64,000 bases of DNA. Source: Escherichia coli. Its GTDB lineage: Bacteria > Pseudomonadota > Gammaproteobacteria > Enterobacterales > Enterobacteriaceae. Below, in pieces: positions 1 to 8,261 of this stretch (within the stretch, counting starts at the first letter, position 1; the number at the start of each line of letters is the position of its first letter). The notes beneath the pieces are model-generated. The model worked only from the letters and a program-made list of their open reading frames with translations. It was not told where the DNA came from and did no database searches. The position numbers and the translations under genes are program-made. The stretch is from NCBI RefSeq assembly GCF_024700885.2, contig NZ_CP117016.1. One strand, 5' to 3'.

Positions 1-593
1 CACGTACTGTAAAAATTTATAACCTGCTGGCCGGAACTAATGAGTTTATTGGTGAAGGTGACGCATATATTCCACCTCATACAGGGCTGCCAGCTAATTC
101 TACAGATATCGCCCCACCGGAAATTCCTGCTGGCTTTGTGGCAGTTTTTAACAGTGAAAATGAATCGTGGAATATTGTTGAAGACCATCGTGGTAAAACG
201 GTCTATGACGTGGCATCGGGGGACGCGTTGTTTATTTCTGAGCCCGGACCGCTACCAGAGAATGTCACCTGGTTGTCGCCAGCAGGGGAGTATCAGAAGT
301 GGGACGGCGTATCCTGGGTGAAGGATGAGGAAGCAGAAAAACTGTTTCGGATACGGGAAGCGGAAGAGAAAAAGGCAAGGTTGATCCAGGAAGCAACAGA
401 TAACATCGCAATTCTGCAGGATGCAGTTAATCTTGAAATAGCAACAAACGAGGAAAATTCACAACTGGATTCCTGGAGAAAATACAGAGTATTAGTGAGT
501 AGAATTGACACCAGTACAGCTCCGGATATCGTATGGCCAGAGCTGATGAATCAGGGTTATGTGCGGGAGGACGAGCAGATAACTTCAGACTGA
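1..593 (+). CDS. Phage tail fibre assembly protein (Tfa, P2 gpG-like), 5'-truncated by window edge
   Basis: Frame open from position 3 with no stop; translation ...[35 protein letters not shown]...[21 protein letters not shown] matches Tfa family as I recall it. Confidence 0.8.
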
Positions 594-1120
594 AATTTAG
601 TGATGAATGTTGAATCATCAGGAATATCATGCAATACCAATGCATGAGCACCTATTGTGACATTGTTTCCTATACGCACTTTGCCACCAAGAATGGTGGC
701 ATTACAACCAATGGTCACATTATGTCCTATAACAATATCCATATCATTAAAATCACCACGCAGCCCAATAGTTACCCCTGGTTTTATTGAACAATTTTCA
801 CCGATTGTTACTTTGTGACCGATAACAACACTGTTGAGATAAGAAATATCAAAGCCTTTCCCTATATTTACAGTTAAAGGGACTGTTACATTATATTTAT
901 CAAGAATGAAACGTTCTATTTTCCCCGCAATCTTCCGACAGTATCCGCCTTTATCAAAAAGGTACTTGGCTATGCGCCACCAAAATAAATAACGAACTCT
1001 TCTATGTTTTATTGCGCGAACAATTGCCTTTCGCCAGGAGAAAGGACGCTCGCTACCGATTACTTCATAGTGAATACAATCTTTAAGTTCATTAATATTC
1101 ATATCTCTATTATTCAGCAT
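557..1120 (-). CDS. Left-handed beta-helix (hexapeptide-repeat) O-acetyltransferase, WcaB/CysE-like; prophage cargo
   Basis: 187-aa ORF with tandem hexapeptide repeats ([43 protein letters not shown]); visibly AT-rich; 3' end overlaps tfa 3' end by 37 nt. Confidence 0.7.
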
Positions 1121-1290
1121 AAGATAATCATGTGACCAATTATTGTAATAATTTTAATGGTATGTTTCTACTGGCTATCCAGCGCGCCTGATGTCCAGTA
1201 ACAAATCGTTAACACTAGTGCAATCAAATGGTGAGTGTTAAGACTGGCCACTTATTACCAGGTATGAGGGTATGAGTGGCCAGCATTAAA

Positions 1291-1785
1291 TCAGAACAGC
1301 CCTTTAACTGAACTGGCCGCGCTGTTAAGGGATGATGTCACTTTATCTTTGAAGCCGGACAGCATATCGCTGAACGATGAGGATTGCAGGCGCTCCCGCA
1401 AATCCTCATCACAGCGTTCAAGGGTCAGTGAAAATTCTATCTTTTTCGCCTTACCGTAGCGATCAAACTCGGAACGGGTCGTATTCGTTTCGGTCAGGAC
1501 ATACATGCCGTAAATCTGCCCGACGCCATCAATCAGAGGCCAGGGGCGTCCTGTATACGCCTGCGTGGTCAGCAGCGACAGCGACACTTCGCCACCTGTA
1601 ATTTCAGGATAAAGCACACCAGAAAGAACGATGCGATCATCACCTGCACCGATATACTGCCAGCTTGCTGAACGGTTAACGCGTTCATTTTTCACATGCC
1701 GCCAGCTTTTGTTTTGCTGTAACTGCTGATGCGGCAGCGTGCGCAGCTCAAAAACAAACATGCCGTAGATCATCATCATGGCCAT
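1291..1785 (-). CDS. Phage tail protein gpU
   Basis: 164-aa ORF; FVFELRTLPHQQLQ...VLSGVLYPEITGG...WPLIDG resembles P2 gpU; precise start among the N-terminal Met codons uncertain. Confidence 0.8.
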   Translation of the reverse strand: MAMMMIYGMFVFELRTLPHQQLQQNKSWRHVKNERVNRSASWQYIGAGDDRIVLSGVLYPEITGGEVSLSLLTTQAYTGRPWPLIDGVGQIYGMYVLTETNTTRSEFDRYGKAKKIEFSLTLERCDEDLRERLQSSSFSDMLSGFKDKVTSSLNSAASSVKGLF

Positions 1786-1791
1786 GACTCC

Positions 1792-4635
1792 TCAATCTTT
1801 ATCGTAAAAACTGCCACGCCCGGCACGGGCGCGCCGTTCCATTTCTGCCCTGACCATTTCACCGACCAGTTTCGCCAGTTCGCGGGGATTCTGCGTAACA
1901 ACGTTATGCAGATGAACATGAATTTCACCACCAAATCCGGAGGCAACAGGCTCCCGGTTACGGAAAGTTACAGGAACTGATGCCACTGGAGATCGTATGG
2001 CCTCCGCCACCGGGCGGGAGCTGGCCGCAACAACAGGGACCAGCGCCGGAGGCAGCGGAGCCGGGACCACGGGTGTGATATTAATTGCGGGGGCAGGCTT
2101 ACTGACCTGCGCAATCTTCCGCTCCTGCCACTCCCCACGAACAGCAAGTGCGCGGGGCAGGTTCTTAAAGACAATATCGCCGGGGCCAATGCGTTTTTTC
2201 GTCTCATCAACCAGCTTACCTGTGTTATCAGCAATTTTGCTGAGTCTGCGTAGCGTCCCGGTATTGCTGTCTGTGAGCGGTTTGTTGTCTTTGGGTTTAT
2301 CACCTCCGGTGCCATTGCCATTTTCCACAGGCTTCGGCGGATTGATTTTCGCCAGGTCACCCTGAAGCAAGGCAACCTTGTCCTGAAGAATGGCCGCACG
2401 CTGTGCGTCTTCGATTTTCTTGCGCGCCCTTTCCGCTTCATCCGGAAGGACGCCAAGTTTTTCAAGTATCCACGCCAGCGTATCCAGTAGCATTTTTGCA
2501 GGTGTCAGAACAAGCTGTAACGCACCGCCAAGAACGTTACCGAATATCTCGCCAGCACTGGTACATTTATCCAGCGTTTCCTTGCTGGACTCCATCGGTG
2601 ACAGCAGCGATTTAAACCAGTTAAACACCTGGCTGATCCCGCTTCCGATTGCGTCAAAAACAGGACCAAACCGTTCAAAGGTTTCGCGCAACGGGGTCAG
2701 CCTTTCCATAATCCCGCTGAACACCCCGGCAAAAAATGCCCTGATGGGATCCCAGTATTTCCAGATAAGAACGGCAGCTCCGGCAAGCGCAGCCACGATA
2801 AGACCAACCGGACTGAACAGCGCCCCGATAGCGCCTCCCAGTAAAGAAACGGAACCCGTCACCATTCCCCACAGCGCAGGCAACACCCTGACGACATTCA
2901 TTGACCGGGTAAGAATGTCGAAACCAAGACGCAGGGTGGCCAGCTTCCCGTAAAGCACCCCAATAACCAGCGACAACGAGCCAATCGTTGCAGTCATTGC
3001 CAGCAACGCACCGCCTGCTATCAGTAGTTGGCGCGTCAGTACCGGATGGGCCTGCGCCAGCGAGGTGATTTTTTCAAGCACCCGCGTGAGCCACTGCGTG
3101 ACAGAACGCAGCGGACCGTCAACCAGATCACTGATGCGAATACGAAGACCTTCCCATGCGCTGTCGAGATTTTTCAGGTCCCCATCAAGATTATCGGCCA
3201 TTACTTTTGCGACGCGATCGGCCTCTCCCCTTGCCCCCTGCAATTCTCTGGTCAGTTTTTGCAGCTCTCCTGAACCAGCCGCCGCAACAAGCGTCTGCAA
3301 ACCAACGAACGCCTCTTCTCCGGCGATGTCCTTGAAGAAGGAAACCTGGTCCACCTGTCCGTATTTTTGTGTCGCCTTATAGAGATCAAGCAGCACATCC
3401 TCCATCGGGCGCATTTTGCCTCTGGCGTCAGCAACTGACACCCCCAGCTCTTTCAGTGCATCAGCCGCAGCTTTTGGCGGTGATGCAAGGCGGGACAGAC
3501 TTGCGCGCATGGCCGTACCAGCATCGCTTCCGCGAAGACCATTATTGGCAAGCATCCCGGCCATGGCCGCCGCTTCTTCAAGACTGATACCAAGTTTTGC
3601 GGCAACCGGACCGGTATACTTCATGGTTTCGCCCAGCGCGCGTAAATCAGTATTGGTCCGGGTGAATGTTGCTGTCAGTGTATCGCCAACCCGGTCCATT
3701 TGATCGGCTGTCAGGTTGAACTGTGTGAGGATATTGGAGCCTATATCAGCCGTCTCGCCGAGTTCGACGCCACCTGCCAGCGCCATATTAAGAACACCGG
3801 GCAATGCGGCCTGAATGGCCTGCGGAGTAAAACCAGCCATTGCCAGAAAGCTCTGCCCACTGGCGGCATCACTCGCAGTAAACTGTGTTTCAGAGCCAAG
3901 TTTTAACGCCTGCTCACGCAGCGCCTTAAACTGCGGGCTGTTTTTGTCGATTCGCGTCAGTGCCTGAACGCGGGACATCTCTTTGCCGAACCCGATCGCA
4001 GGCTGCAAAAAACGCCCGGCAGCATAGCCGCCCGCCGCTGCCGCACCAATTGCCAGCGCACCACCTGTTTTCAGTTTTCCCGCTGTTTCCTGCGCGCGCG
4101 AATACCGCTCACGCGCCCGCGTTACACGCGCAAGCGCCTGCCGTTCGCGTTCAAGCTGGTTGTTGTACTGTTCGGTGCGTCTGATGGCCTGCTGGATGGT
4201 GTTATCGCTGCCTGTCAGGGAAATGCCGTGGCGTTTCAGCTCTCCGCCAAGTTCCCGCATTTTCTGAATTTCCCGTGTGCGCGATTCATTCAGGCGTTCA
4301 AGCCGGGTGCTTAACTGCTGCATCAGCTTTTGTTGTTTTTCGCTGAGCACTGTACCCGTGCGTTGTAACTGATTAAGGGCGTTAAGCTGGCGTCGTGCTT
4401 TCACGATGCCCGCATCCGCTTTACTGACAGCGTCACGGGCGCGCTCAAATGAACGCGCCTGACGCTCGAGATTTTTGATCGCCCCCTGCGTTCGCTGGAT
4501 GGAGTCACCAAACTGCCCCATCAGGCGGCGGGCGTTTTCGGCAGGCCGGGTCAGCCTGTCAACGGCGCTGAAAGCGACCCGGATATCAAGAGTCTTCATT
4601 GTCTGCATTCCCGCTGCGAAGTGCCGCCCGCTCAC
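1792..4635 (-). CDS. Phage tail tape measure protein (gpT)
   Basis: 947-aa ORF between E/E' and U, Ala/Gly-rich with coiled-coil-like N-terminal region; start codon uncertain. Confidence 0.85.
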   Translation of the reverse strand: MSGRHFAAGMQTMKTLDIRVAFSAVDRLTRPAENARRLMGQFGDSIQRTQGAIKNLERQARSFERARDAVSKADAGIVKARRQLNALNQLQRTGTVLSEKQQKLMQQLSTRLERLNESRTREIQKMRELGGELKRHGISLTGSDNTIQQAIRRTEQYNNQLERERQALARVTRARERYSRAQETAGKLKTGGALAIGAAAAGGYAAGRFLQPAIGFGKEMSRVQALTRIDKNSPQFKALREQALKLGSETQFTASDAASGQSFLAMAGFTPQAIQAALPGVLNMALAGGVELGETADIGSNILTQFNLTADQMDRVGDTLTATFTRTNTDLRALGETMKYTGPVAAKLGISLEEAAAMAGMLANNGLRGSDAGTAMRASLSRLASPPKAAADALKELGVSVADARGKMRPMEDVLLDLYKATQKYGQVDQVSFFKDIAGEEAFVGLQTLVAAAGSGELQKLTRELQGARGEADRVAKVMADNLDGDLKNLDSAWEGLRIRISDLVDGPLRSVTQWLTRVLEKITSLAQAHPVLTRQLLIAGGALLAMTATIGSLSLVIGVLYGKLATLRLGFDILTRSMNVVRVLPALWGMVTGSVSLLGGAIGALFSPVGLIVAALAGAAVLIWKYWDPIRAFFAGVFSGIMERLTPLRETFERFGPVFDAIGSGISQVFNWFKSLLSPMESSKETLDKCTSAGEIFGNVLGGALQLVLTPAKMLLDTLAWILEKLGVLPDEAERARKKIEDAQRAAILQDKVALLQGDLAKINPPKPVENGNGTGGDKPKDNKPLTDSNTGTLRRLSKIADNTGKLVDETKKRIGPGDIVFKNLPRALAVRGEWQERKIAQVSKPAPAINITPVVPAPLPPALVPVVAASSRPVAEAIRSPVASVPVTFRNREPVASGFGGEIHVHLHNVVTQNPRELAKLVGEMVRAEMERRARAGRGSFYDKD

Positions 4636-4822
4636 GCCAGCTAACCACTTCGCCGGGCGTCATCATGAAGATTTCGGCGGGCGACCAGTTAAAAATGGCG
4701 GCGATATCTGCCACCAGATCTTCGATGTGCTCAAAGCACACCAGCGTGATTACGCTGCCGTCTCCTGCACGCTCTTCGCGCCAGAGTCTGGCTCGCTCAT
4801 AAAATTTACAGCCACAGCGCAC
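4586..4822 (-). other. E' extension frame, reached from gpE by programmed -1 frameshift; overlaps the start of gpT
   Basis: -1 frame ORF overlapping the 3' end of gpE; opens just 3' of a TAA, so no independent start is expected. Confidence 0.6.
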
Positions 4823-5124
4823 AACTGAATAAAATCGCGTGACGACATTTTTTTAATCATCACTTCATCCAGTCGTGGCGAGGTCACGCGAGGCAACAGC
4901 GTGAACATGGTATCCGCTTTCAGATTCAGCACATCAGACAGCGACAGACCACGCAGGGATCCAGCCTGTTCAATAGCCCCGGTGATCTCCACATACGTGA
5001 TTTTTTCGCCACCACGCTCAATTGGTCGGGTCAGTTTTACGCCACGTTCGACAGCCATATCCTCACCTGCCGTCACATCATCCACCACGGTGTTATTCCG
5101 GGTTTCAGTATCGATGTCTTTCAT
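4750..5124 (-). CDS. Tail assembly chaperone gpE (zero-frame product)
   Basis: ORF directly upstream of the tape measure gene with an overlapping -1 frame ORF, typical of E/E'; real start may be an internal Met. Confidence 0.7.
   Translation of the reverse strand: MKDIDTETRNNTVVDDVTAGEDMAVERGVKLTRPIERGGEKITYVEITGAIEQAGSLRGLSLSDVLNLKADTMFTLLPRVTSPRLDEVMIKKMSSRDFIQLCAVAVNFMSEPDSGAKSVQETAA
4801..4807 (-). promoter_or_regulatory. Candidate -1 slippery heptamer A_AAT_TTT for E/E' frameshifting
   Basis: Minus-strand GTA AAT TTT ATG in the E frame; a -1 slip gives AAA TTT TAT GAG, continuing into the E' ORF. Confidence 0.55.
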
Positions 5125-5179
5125 CAGTTTTCTCCTTTTCAGTCAGAGGCGACGCACTGCGTCGCCTGCATATTACTTA

Positions 5180-5692
5180 TCAGCCAAGCCCGAGCGCGGA
5201 ACGGATACGGTCAGGCAAAATGTCCTTGCCGTCCTTCCGGTAGATGTGGTTCAACAGGTCGATTTCCCACAGCGGGCGATCGTTAACGCTCAGCTTGTAG
5301 TAGGTGTTTTTGACAGCGTAAGTGTGTGATGTGGCTTCGCCCTGTTTGGCTTCCCCCATATCAATTTCCGTCACACGTCCGCGCATCTCGATTTCATACA
5401 GATCGCTTTCTGCATCGGTGTAGTATTCACCCGCAAAACGCAGCAGCGTGCCGTCAATCGTGCCGCCATATTTAAGGAACAGCGCACGAACAGCTCCCCC
5501 CATAACAAAACTCGCATCAAGCGCGGAGTCGTCCAGACCGAGATCAATACTTACCGCCCCCATCATGCCACCACCACGATAGCTGTCGGTTTTGCGCGTC
5601 AGTTTGGGCGGCGTGACGGATGTCACTTTACCCACTTCGTTTTCACCATCCACAAACAACGTAAAAAAGCGAAGATGTTTTGGTACAGCCAT
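5180..5692 (-). CDS. Phage tail tube protein (gpFII)
   Basis: 170-aa ORF; its start overlaps the FI stop (ATGA), the usual FI-FII coupling. Confidence 0.85.
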   Translation of the reverse strand: MAVPKHLRFFTLFVDGENEVGKVTSVTPPKLTRKTDSYRGGGMMGAVSIDLGLDDSALDASFVMGGAVRALFLKYGGTIDGTLLRFAGEYYTDAESDLYEIEMRGRVTEIDMGEAKQGEATSHTYAVKNTYYKLSVNDRPLWEIDLLNHIYRKDGKDILPDRIRSALGLG

Positions 5693-6876
5693 CAGGCACC
5701 TCCCAGCACCGCAAATGCGGGACCAAAGAATTCATCAGTAAACGTCTGGTAAAGCTCCATGTCTTCCAGTGGCGGAACGGGCGTATATTTGTAGCGAATA
5801 CGCACACGTCCCTGACGTAAATTCGTGGTGCCGTTATCCACCACGTCATACCAGCACTCCGCGCCAATCAGTTTCCCGGCAGTAACCAGCGAATCCAGTT
5901 TTGCCCTGATGGCACTGATAACATCCTTCACGTTCGCAGGCGTCAGTGGACTGTCGATAGTTTCAAACTGCGCTTCCGCAATTGAATCAGCCAGCACCTG
6001 TGCGGTTCGGGTATACACCTCAAAGATGTAGGCGTTCGTTTCCGGTGTGCGGTTGCCCCAGAAGCGGAACCCATTGCGACGAATAATGGTCGTGATTTCT
6101 TTGTTGTTGAGGCTGTTGGCATCGCTGTCTTCGGCCTGCAACGACCAGAACACATGCCTCGACATCCCCAGCACATTTTTAACCGGAACGTTGGACAGTG
6201 ATTTGTGCCACCCCTGCTCATGGTCAATGTACGCACGAAGGCCGCACGCATAGGCAGGCGCGGGGAACGTTTCGTTTTTGCCACTTTTCGGGTTGTAGGC
6301 GATGAAGTCCGGCCATAAGAGCATCACCTCACGTTCGTTGAATTTCTGGCGGTAGGTAATCGCCTCAGCCATCGTGTTACAGCCGTGACATGAGGCATAC
6401 ACAAACGCGCGCAGTTTACCTGCAATCACGCACAGGGATTTTGTTACAGCCTCCGTGTCCAGCTCCGGCGCGGCCAGAATACGCGGACGGTATCCGATGC
6501 TTTCATCCTGCTCTGCAACAAGCAGCGCATACATCCCCGTATAGCTGCCGTCATCCTCAGAACCACCGATAACCAGTTGATCCTGCGTCTTTCCGTCTTC
6601 TTCTTTGTGTTCAGCCACGCGAACGACAATCACCTTTGTGCTCACCTGGTCTGCGATGGCCTTAAGCGCACGATAAAGCGTCCCCGTTGTCCCGCATTTT
6701 CCCAGCACGTCATTGACGCGGGTCAGCAGTGTGGGCTTGTTCAGCGGGAACAGCTTCGCGTCCGCATCATCCGCCGTTGCCACGATACCGATAACGCTGG
6801 AATCAACATCGTTAATCGCTGTTACCAGGTCGGTATTTTCCGTAACACGGGCACCATGAAAACGAGTTTCACTCAT
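5692..6876 (-). CDS. Phage contractile tail sheath protein (gpFI)
   Basis: 394-aa ORF; motifs LRAFVYASCHGC, QGWHKSLSNV, IRRNGFRFWGNRT, YKYTPVPPLE match P2 FI as I recall it. Confidence 0.9.
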   Translation of the reverse strand: MSETRFHGARVTENTDLVTAINDVDSSVIGIVATADDADAKLFPLNKPTLLTRVNDVLGKCGTTGTLYRALKAIADQVSTKVIVVRVAEHKEEDGKTQDQLVIGGSEDDGSYTGMYALLVAEQDESIGYRPRILAAPELDTEAVTKSLCVIAGKLRAFVYASCHGCNTMAEAITYRQKFNEREVMLLWPDFIAYNPKSGKNETFPAPAYACGLRAYIDHEQGWHKSLSNVPVKNVLGMSRHVFWSLQAEDSDANSLNNKEITTIIRRNGFRFWGNRTPETNAYIFEVYTRTAQVLADSIAEAQFETIDSPLTPANVKDVISAIRAKLDSLVTAGKLIGAECWYDVVDNGTTNLRQGRVRIRYKYTPVPPLEDMELYQTFTDEFFGPAFAVLGGA

Positions 6877-7033
6877 AGCTTCAGCCCCTTGTATCCGTTA
6901 AATGATTCGGCAACAATCATCACCCACCACGCGCGTAATCTCACCCCTGCGCCGTTCTCCCACCACGGCGACAACAAAAAGCAGTAACCCCCTCCGCACG
7001 CACATGCGACCATGCCGCACAGGGAGGGAACAG

Positions 7034-8131
7034 ATGACCGACACCACCATGCAATTGCTCAGTCAGGGCACAGACCCCGTGAAAATGCCGGATTTTGATA
7101 TTCTCGCGGAGGGTAAAACGCTGTCAGGCGTGACAGAGCGCCTGATGAGCCTGTCACTGACCGACAACCGGGGATTTGAGGCGGACCAGCTCACCATCAC
7201 GCTGGATGATGCAGATGGTCAGTTGCAGCTACCGCCACGGGGCGCGCGCCTGACGGTTCTCATTGGCTGGAAAGGAGAACCGCTGACAGAAAAAGGCACT
7301 TACATTGTTGATGAAATCGCTCACGAAGGACCGCCGGACAGGCTGACTGTTTCAGCCAGAAGCGCAGATTTTCGGGATGAATTTAACGTTAAACGTGAGG
7401 TGTCCTGGCATGATGTGACCGTTGAGCGTGTGGTATCCGCCATCGCTCATCGGTACGGTCTGAAACCGCAAATCAGCGAAATGCTGATGGATATCGAAAT
7501 CGACCACGCCGACCAGACCGAAGAAAGCGACATGTCCTTTCTTACGCGCATGGCGGAAATGCTGGGCGCAATCACCACGGTAAAAAGCGGTAATCTGTTA
7601 TTCATTATGCCAGGCGGTGGCGTGAACGCACAGGGCCAGCCGTTGCCATCGTTCGCCATCACGCGCAGCAGTGGCGATCGCCATCAGTTCCGCATTGCTG
7701 ACCGCGAAGCGTATACGGGGGTACGCGCTTACTGGCTTGATCTTAATTACGGGAAAAAGAAAAAAGTCAGCGTGAAACGCCGTAAACCGAAAATGGAGAA
7801 AAGCAGTAGCCGTGAAGGCGACTATATGGAAGGTGCGGAAGGCAACGTGTTTGTGTTACGCAAGACTTATCAGAACGAACAGGCAGCAAGACGCGCTGCG
7901 GCGGCAAAGTGGCAGCAGCTACAACGCGGAGCCGCATCATTCTCCATCACACTGGCACGTGGACGCGCAGAACTCTACCCCGAAATGCATGGCACGGTAA
8001 CAGGATTTAAAAGCGAGATTGATAATCAGGACTGGATTATTGCAAAAGCCGAGCACACCATTGATAACAGCGGTTATACCACGCAGCTTGAACTTGAAAC
8101 AAAAATCCCTGAATGGATTGCGCAGACCTAA
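7034..8131 (+). CDS. Phage late control / tail protein gpD
   Basis: LSLTDNRGFEADQL, SARSADFR, SWHDVT, YMEGAEGNVF match P2 gpD; ATG at 7034 is preceded by AGGGAGGGAA; the ORF track extends upstream to 6902. Confidence 0.85.
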   Translation: MTDTTMQLLSQGTDPVKMPDFDILAEGKTLSGVTERLMSLSLTDNRGFEADQLTITLDDADGQLQLPPRGARLTVLIGWKGEPLTEKGTYIVDEIAHEGPPDRLTVSARSADFRDEFNVKREVSWHDVTVERVVSAIAHRYGLKPQISEMLMDIEIDHADQTEESDMSFLTRMAEMLGAITTVKSGNLLFIMPGGGVNAQGQPLPSFAITRSSGDRHQFRIADREAYTGVRAYWLDLNYGKKKKVSVKRRKPKMEKSSSREGDYMEGAEGNVFVLRKTYQNEQAARRAAAAKWQQLQRGAASFSITLARGRAELYPEMHGTVTGFKSEIDNQDWIIAKAEHTIDNSGYTTQLELETKIPEWIAQT

Positions 8132-8146
8132 ATGGTGGGAAGATAC

Positions 8147-8185
8147 GGCACAGAGCCAACATAATATACCTGTTTGCTCTGTGCC
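8147..8185. repeat. Perfect 10-bp inverted repeat (GGCACAGAGC / GCTCTGTGCC) with 19-nt loop between convergent D and orphan gene
   Basis: Read directly; no adjacent T-run on either side. Confidence 0.5.
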
Positions 8186-8261
8186 CGAAATAGGCATCAT
8201 AAACCTAACGATGAATTGATATGCAAGATTATAAAAAATCCGCTGACATTATTTCTCATCG

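Follow-up and report, generated by a model that had tools for sequence, protein, structure and literature searches.

The 157-bp region between the divergently oriented tail genes FI and D of an Escherichia coli prophage reads as a bidirectional, Ogr-dependent late promoter of the kind formed by pP and pO in phage P2, a reading to which we assign a probability of roughly three in four. At the level of the sequence, the gap presents what characterizes the pP/pO type, i.e. a single candidate activator site located equidistant from two putative divergent promoters. The site is a dyad, which is the top-ranking match to a late-promoter weight matrix, is conserved among relatives and is flanked at mirror positions by two -10 elements; the same prophage carries a gene of the Ogr activator family, and phages with this layout are viable.

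The window, i.e. the whole stretch of 64,000 nucleotides of E. coli DNA that was analyzed, carries from position 1 to ~10,400 the right end of a P2-family prophage, which is followed by the host genes ihfA, pheT and pheS (Table 1). Positions 5600-8122 share 98.0% DNA identity with Escherichia phage P88 (Xuanwuvirus, Peduoviridae; NC_026014) and 97% with Citrobacter phage phiSM, and the FI/D junction itself is 99.4% identical to that of P88. The gene order is the same as in P88, and the prophage qualifies as a Xuanwuvirus (P88-like Peduoviridae). Furthermore, the window is 100% identical to DNA of E. coli strain E-1246, where the whole prophage is located between btuC and ihfA. The FI product exhibits the Pfam domains Phage_sheath_1, Gp18_domIII_N and Phage_sheath_1C, and the D product is 98.6% identical to D of P88 over residues 1-365. 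For E-1246 the RefSeq/PGAP annotation (NZ_CP025573.1, 2110015-2111112) gives D as a 262-aa product that begins at an internal start, accompanied by a small pseudogene fragment; this short version is probably an annotation artefact, the 365-aa ORF being intact. A longer D starting from the ATG at 6902 (409 aa) was considered and rejected, since the alignment of D with its relatives begins close to residue 1 as counted from the 7034 start. The longer D and the 'gp50' ORF of P88, which likewise crosses the gap, were also dismissed in view of a gap of 125-173 bp without frame conservation in other genera.

Table 1. Positions of genes and of observed and predicted regulatory elements in the prophage part of the window.
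Feature	Position	Strand	Description
Hexapeptide-repeat transferase gene	557-1120	minus	Pfam Hexapep; phrog_2154; between tail-fibre assembly gene and U
U	1291-1785	minus	
T	1792-4635	minus	
E	4750-5124	minus	
FII	5180-5692	minus	
FI, tail-sheath gene	5692-6876	minus	394 aa; first gene of the leftward FI-FII-E-T-U operon
FI/D divergent intergenic region	6877-7033		157 bp between FI ATG and D ATG
Putative FI ribosome-binding site AAGGGG	6885-6890	minus	8 nt before ATG
Predicted FI -10 hexamer GATGAT	6916-6921	minus	4/6 to TATAAT; implied start ~6909
Predicted Ogr-family activator site	6954-6975		dyad GTTCT-N12-ACAAC; centre 6964.5; 9/10 match to GTTGT-N12-ACAAC
Predicted D -10 hexamer GACCAT	7008-7013	plus	3/6 to TATAAT; implied start ~7020
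D ribosome-binding site GGGAGGG	7022-7028	plus	read from sequence
D, tail baseplate hub gene	7034-8131	plus	365 aa; ORF intact; Pfam Phage_GPD
AT-rich D-ogr insert	8132-9590		ORF 8262-9422 on the minus strand, 386 aa
Ogr/Delta-family zinc-finger gene	9624-9884	plus	86 aa; presumed reader of the dyad
hok/gef gene	10075-10215	plus	
Terminator-like hairpin	10302-10329		bidirectional; after hok/gef, just inside the prophage end beside ihfA

The first-pass annotation of this DNA had described the region as a 157-bp interval between the FI start (minus) and the D start (plus) that was created by a rearrangement. The boundaries are correct, with the ATG of FI ending at 6876 and the ATG of D starting at 7034, and relative to P2 the block FI-FII-E-T-U is indeed inverted with D facing away from FI. 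The junction was, however, not created in this genome. FI(-)/D(+) divergence was observed in 164 of 164 related loci from phage and viral-contig collections and in four phage genera, and the junction occurs at an identity of at least 95% in 1370 of 5426 complete E. coli genomes. The arrangement FI(-)/D(+)/ogr(+) is also present in Klebsiella phages of the genera Reginaelenavirus and Reipivirus (D 69-71% identical) and in Salmonella phage SEN5 (Senquatrovirus; D 62% identical); a Wadgaonvirus phage (D 52% identical) retains the P2 order T-U-D-ogr. The collection scan with D of the window returned only relatives of at least 97% identity, and the diversity across genera derives from a query with D of SEN5. 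The divergent FI/D layout is a fixed architecture of the P88-like phages and of at least three sister genera and not a local feature. It would have arisen by an ancient event that turned around, with respect to the P2 order, the segment between the F promoter and U, both included, and thereby brought the symmetric F-promoter site beside D.

D has no promoter of its own in P2, as the first-pass annotation had stated and as is evident from the P2 record, where D is the last gene of the F operon; whether D can still be expressed in the divergent layout had been left open. This doubt can be dispelled by means of the relatives. P88 is inducible and lyses new hosts, and phiSM forms plaques and lysogenises E. 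coli K-12 (PMC5285337; PMC6456863), both phages having junctions 98-99% identical to that of the window. Since the tail gene D is essential in P2 according to the P2 record, and P88 and phiSM are infectious with this layout, D must be expressed from it.

The Ogr core consensus had been given correctly in the first-pass annotation as TGT-N12-ACA (PMC3931495, which refers to Christie and Calendar 1985 and to Julien and Calendar 1995), and only a TGT at 6890-6892 without a properly spaced ACA had been found, which we can confirm with positions 6905-6907 reading ATT. This TGT was rejected as an Ogr half-site, as it overlaps the FI ribosome-binding region and is without a partner. An exact TGT-N12-ACA does not occur in 6877-7033, and a regular-expression search over positions 1-10500 of the window located it only at position 1005, inside another gene. 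Overlooked at that stage was the one-mismatch site TCT-N12-ACA at 6956-6973, which forms the core of the dyad and agrees with the consensus in five of six positions, TCT replacing TGT. The right half of the dyad continues into the A-tract ACAACAAAAAG. In P2 the sites of pF and pP/pO read TGT-N12-CCA and are themselves only 5/6 to TGT-N12-ACA; an exact match is therefore not required of known members.

For the motif scan proposed in the first-pass annotation a symmetrised weight matrix of 28 columns was derived from 13 non-redundant sites, which comprised sites of other genera, P2 pF and pP/pO as well as SEN5 P/O and V, with the window's clade being excluded. The match at 6951-6978 ranks first among 63,973 window positions with 17.9 bits versus 13.9 bits for the runner-up, a score which is partly due to shared ancestry, as the training sites from the FI/D gaps of relatives are homologous to the target. 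Upon shuffling of the 157-bp gap the score of the dyad was attained in 2 out of 20,000 cases, and the gap holds one high-scoring site. Scanning the 44-kb prophage locus with the matrix yielded the FI/D gap and the P/O gap as the best two matches. In line with this, the exact motif TTCT-N12-ACAAC was found in two copies within the 44 kb (both strands), located only in the divergent late-gene gaps P/O and FI/D; both copies read TTCT-N12-ACAACAAAA, then (A)G, and the same pair is present in P88. In a bare count, matches to the dyad pattern with at most one mismatch are no more frequent in the entire 64 kb than chance would predict (2 found versus 2.24 expected), and the case therefore rests on location, matrix rank, the paralogous P/O site and conservation.

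At the homologous position Klebsiella phage L085 carries GTTGT-N12-ACAAC, Salmonella phage SEN5 GTTGT-N12-ACAAT and other lineages xTGT-N12-ACAAC, and the dyad centre is located 77.5-88.5 nt upstream of the FI ATG in nearly all lineages. Within 39 unique Xuanwuvirus-type gaps (79 loci) substitutions concentrate in the spacer (6959-6967) and the left flank (6950-6954); invariant are TTCT at 6955-6958 and positions 6968-6985, which comprise the right half-site and the A-tract, and likewise ATCATC (6916-6921) and GACCAT (7008-7013), the two predicted -10 elements. A related motif, GTTAT-N12-ACAAC, was noticed at the end of the partition gene in the prophage as well as in P88 (L170 17946-17967 and L003 10116-10137, respectively). 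It is also a hairpin (GTTATT...AATAAC), does not score high by the weight matrix and may represent either an additional activator site or a terminator.

Late promoters of the P2/186/P4 type have their dyad centred ~55 nt upstream of the transcription start, and their transcription needs the activator together with the C-terminal domain of the RNA polymerase alpha subunit. According to the P2 record (NC_001895), pP (start 3016) and pO (start 3127) share one activator site (3057-3087), whose dyad centre at 3071.5 is 55.5 nt away from each start. Applying this distance to the window predicts starts at ~6909 for FI and ~7020 for D with leaders of ~33 nt and ~14 nt, respectively, the D start being placed 2 nt before the ribosome-binding site. 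GATGAT and GACCAT are each located at exactly -12 to -7 of these predicted starts, and no -35-like hexamer is found upstream of either of them. The mapped late -10 hexamers of P2 (GAAACT, TAGCCT, GAAAAT and TGCAAT) match TATAAT in three to four of six positions, those of pO and pP in three, and are without a -35 element as well.

A comparison of 16 lineage representatives, which were aligned ungapped and anchored on the dyad, with the -10 columns not being used as anchor, revealed ATCAT at -49 to -45 and A..AT at ~+44 to +48 as the most informative columns outside of the dyad. On each side, 15 of the 16 lineages have the motif xAxxAT, the core of the sigma-70 -10 element, at a distance of 43.5-48.5 nt from the dyad centre. 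On the FI side (minus strand) the hexamers are GATGAT, AATGAT, GAATAT, AATCAT or CACTAT, and at the mirror offset on the D side GACCAT, AACCAT, AATCAT, GACGAT, GAGTAT, CAAAAT, CAGAAT or AATGAT. While the D-side offset is fixed, the distance between the dyad and the D start codon varies among the lineages; hence the element goes with the dyad rather than with the gene start. The weight-matrix scan and the -10 elements on both strands together amount to essentially what the first-pass annotation had named as evidence against its own view, namely a well-spaced Ogr site with promoter elements in both directions.

In SEN5 the D side has the same succession of elements as the phage's own V promoter (dyad, 8 bases, GTTGT, GC run and -10), which indicates that both belong to one class of late promoters. 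The third GTTGT is located 8 nt past the dyad in the V and D promoters of SEN5 (L169 9261-9330 and 20788-20850) and also on the D sides of L111-L156; in the SEN5 type, 11-mer (GC)n runs, the two longest of the genome, come after it and shortly before the -10. The FI side of the SEN5 type carries neither the extra GTTGT nor the GC box, i.e. the two sides are asymmetric, and given this asymmetry the site may be directional in some lineages. As a GC counterpart the clade of the window exhibits only CGCGCG at 6930-6935. (CG)n boxes were rejected as a specific element in this clade, because the genomes contain hexamers of the CGCGCG type at a frequency of about one per kb.

The gene product which presumably reads the dyad is 41.5% identical to P2 Ogr (E 9e-11, tblastn) and matches Pfam Ogr_Delta with 52.3 bits against a cut-off of 26.3; in strain E-1246 it is annotated by RefSeq as ogr/Delta-like. 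In nearly all loci that extend far enough, D is followed by an Ogr homologue on the same strand; in P88 this gene (L003 34477-34737) begins 43 bp past D and lacks an annotation in the RefSeq record. The zinc finger of the Xuanwuvirus homologue has the spacing CX2C-X24-CX4C as compared to X22 in P2 and every other lineage examined, and the homologue reads YYQCNN where P2 Ogr has YHQCQN. It is conceivable, though rather doubtful, that the Xuanwuvirus activator has changed its DNA specificity, with the X24 finger acting on the asymmetric TTCT-N12-ACAACAAAA A-tract sites. Klebsiella phage L086, which has TCT together with an X22 finger, speaks against such a change, and the link between the X24 finger and TTCT is accordingly loose. 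If the specificity were altered, there would be partial insulation, in both directions, between P88-like prophages on the one hand and P2 Ogr and the delta activators of P4-type satellites on the other, which would concern prophages in a quarter of E. coli genomes.

The gap between D and ogr is a cargo hotspot. Out of 75 Xuanwuvirus-type loci with both genes, 36 have a gap of 40-42 bp, and the remaining gaps comprise at least 20 different insert lengths between 1.0 and 3.8 kb. The insert of the window parts ogr from the D transcript and occurs in this variant in 19 of 5426 E. coli genomes. Its 386-aa protein gave no match in Pfam, PADLOC or PHROG and may be an uncharacterised accessory or defence gene product. 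At the other end of the tail operon, the position of the hexapeptide-repeat transferase gene is occupied by a DNA invertase in P88 and phiSM, with the inverted tail-fibre gene copies of P88 adjoining; the transferase may serve lysogenic conversion, for example as an acetyltransferase.

Points which count against a bidirectional promoter include the dyad core being one base off the consensus, the chance-level pattern count over 64 kb, the D-side -10 with its 3/6 match and the short D leader of ~14 nt. The dyad could accordingly be the F-promoter site for the FI operon alone, with D being transcribed from a separate, unrecognised promoter or under another regulator. Such a division would agree with the SEN5-type D side, which possesses the third GTTGT and the GC run that the FI side lacks, and with the weak D-side -10 of the window. 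We nevertheless regard it as unlikely, as the D-side xAxxAT keeps the exact mirror distance in 15 of 16 lineages despite the shifting D start codon, no other promoter-like match is present within the gap and P2 pP/pO is a precedent for one site serving two promoters. Clearly less probable still is a weak constitutive sigma-70 promoter that drives D independently of Ogr. Weak promoters do evade consensus scans, and GACCAT could be a poor -10 of this kind, but a sigma-70 -35/-10 scan of positions 6700-7200 on both strands (at least 9/12 matches) yielded none in 6877-7033, its only match being located inside D on the minus strand (7127-7100). In addition, a TTGACA-like hexamer is absent at -35 upstream of D, and constitutive expression of a prophage tail hub gene would presumably be unusual. 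The absence of a full sigma-70 promoter from the gap fits activator-dependent promoters.

That the rearrangement stranded D, resulting in a silent gene and a tail-defective prophage, appears highly improbable. The exact TGT-N12-ACA is indeed absent from the gap, and PGAP lists D of E-1246 as a 262-aa product with a pseudogene fragment, but the ORF is intact and 98.6% identical to D of the infectious P88 with a junction at 99.4% identity; besides, the whole clade shares the layout, which is also very widespread in E. coli, and the promoter elements are conserved. Least probable of all is a hairpin of the inverted repeat CGCCGT-N9-ACGGCG (6950-6970) that acts as regulatory RNA or terminator between FI and D. 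The 6-bp repeat is perfect in the window, but its left arm (6950-6954) and loop (6959-6967) coincide with the most variable columns of the clade, it is missing in other genera, and no compensatory changes preserving the stem were seen across the relatives. Folding of either strand was no better than that of shuffled sequences (z -0.48 and -0.17), no terminator-like site was found in the gap, and positions 1-10600 gave no Rfam match.

If the gap acts as a bidirectional late promoter, the prophage's own Ogr-family activator would bind the dyad and recruit RNA polymerase to two weak promoters, which possess a -10 and are without a -35 element and would both depend on Ogr. Because the dyad is symmetric and central, the polymerase would be recruited both ways. 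Leftward, transcription would probably start near 6909 behind GATGAT (6921-6916) and cover FI-FII-E-T-U; rightward, it would start near 7020 behind GACCAT and cover D, which would thus be expressed late along with the other tail genes. After the block inversion the D side would have required just a -10 element. D would then not be orphaned by the inversion, and the FI/D gap could be labelled a late regulatory region; the prophage family concerned is present in ~25% of complete E. coli genomes. More generally, a symmetric activator site would make the inversion of a gene block tolerable, as it serves the gene left behind once a -10 exists. The practical value is modest and consists in a better promoter annotation of P88-like prophages and a predicted pair of start sites.

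Among the known systems, the closest relatives P88 and phiSM have the same dyad and -10 elements as the window except for one spacer base (6963), their FI-D region is 97-98% identical in DNA, and Ogr and hok follow D as in the window. They differ in that the 1.5-kb AT-rich insert with the 386-aa gene between D and ogr is present in the window prophage only and in that the window has the transferase gene where P88 has an invertible tail-fibre segment with its invertase. The word 'ogr' is absent from the papers on both phages, as are 'promoter' from the P88 paper and 'late promoter' from the phiSM paper (PMC5285337; PMC6456863).

With the P2 pF operon the prophage shares the tail genes from FI on and the same type of dyad upstream of FI, the distance between dyad centre and FI ATG being 82.5 nt in P2 and 88.5 nt in the window; unlike the P2 operon, which runs FI FII E E' T U D and into ogr, the FI-U block is inverted here and D lies on the other face of the dyad. 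As in P2, an Ogr/Delta-family zinc-finger activator gene is located just past D. The activator sites annotated in the P2 record for pP/pO, pV and pF have in common a GTTGT, followed 12 bases on by CCA or CAA. A close resemblance exists to P2 pP/pO, where likewise one dyad of the GTTGT-N12-xCAAC type is placed between two divergent late operons, with weak -10 hexamers, no -35 elements and starts ~55.5 nt on either side of the dyad centre. The differences concern the gene pair, which is FI and D here, the starts, which are predicted here and mapped in P2, the left half-site, which reads TTCT versus TTGT, and the conserved A-tract after the right half. The FI/D gap would in this sense be a further instance of the P2 pP/pO design, with FI and D as a new gene pair, a clade-specific TTCT half-site and an X24-finger activator.
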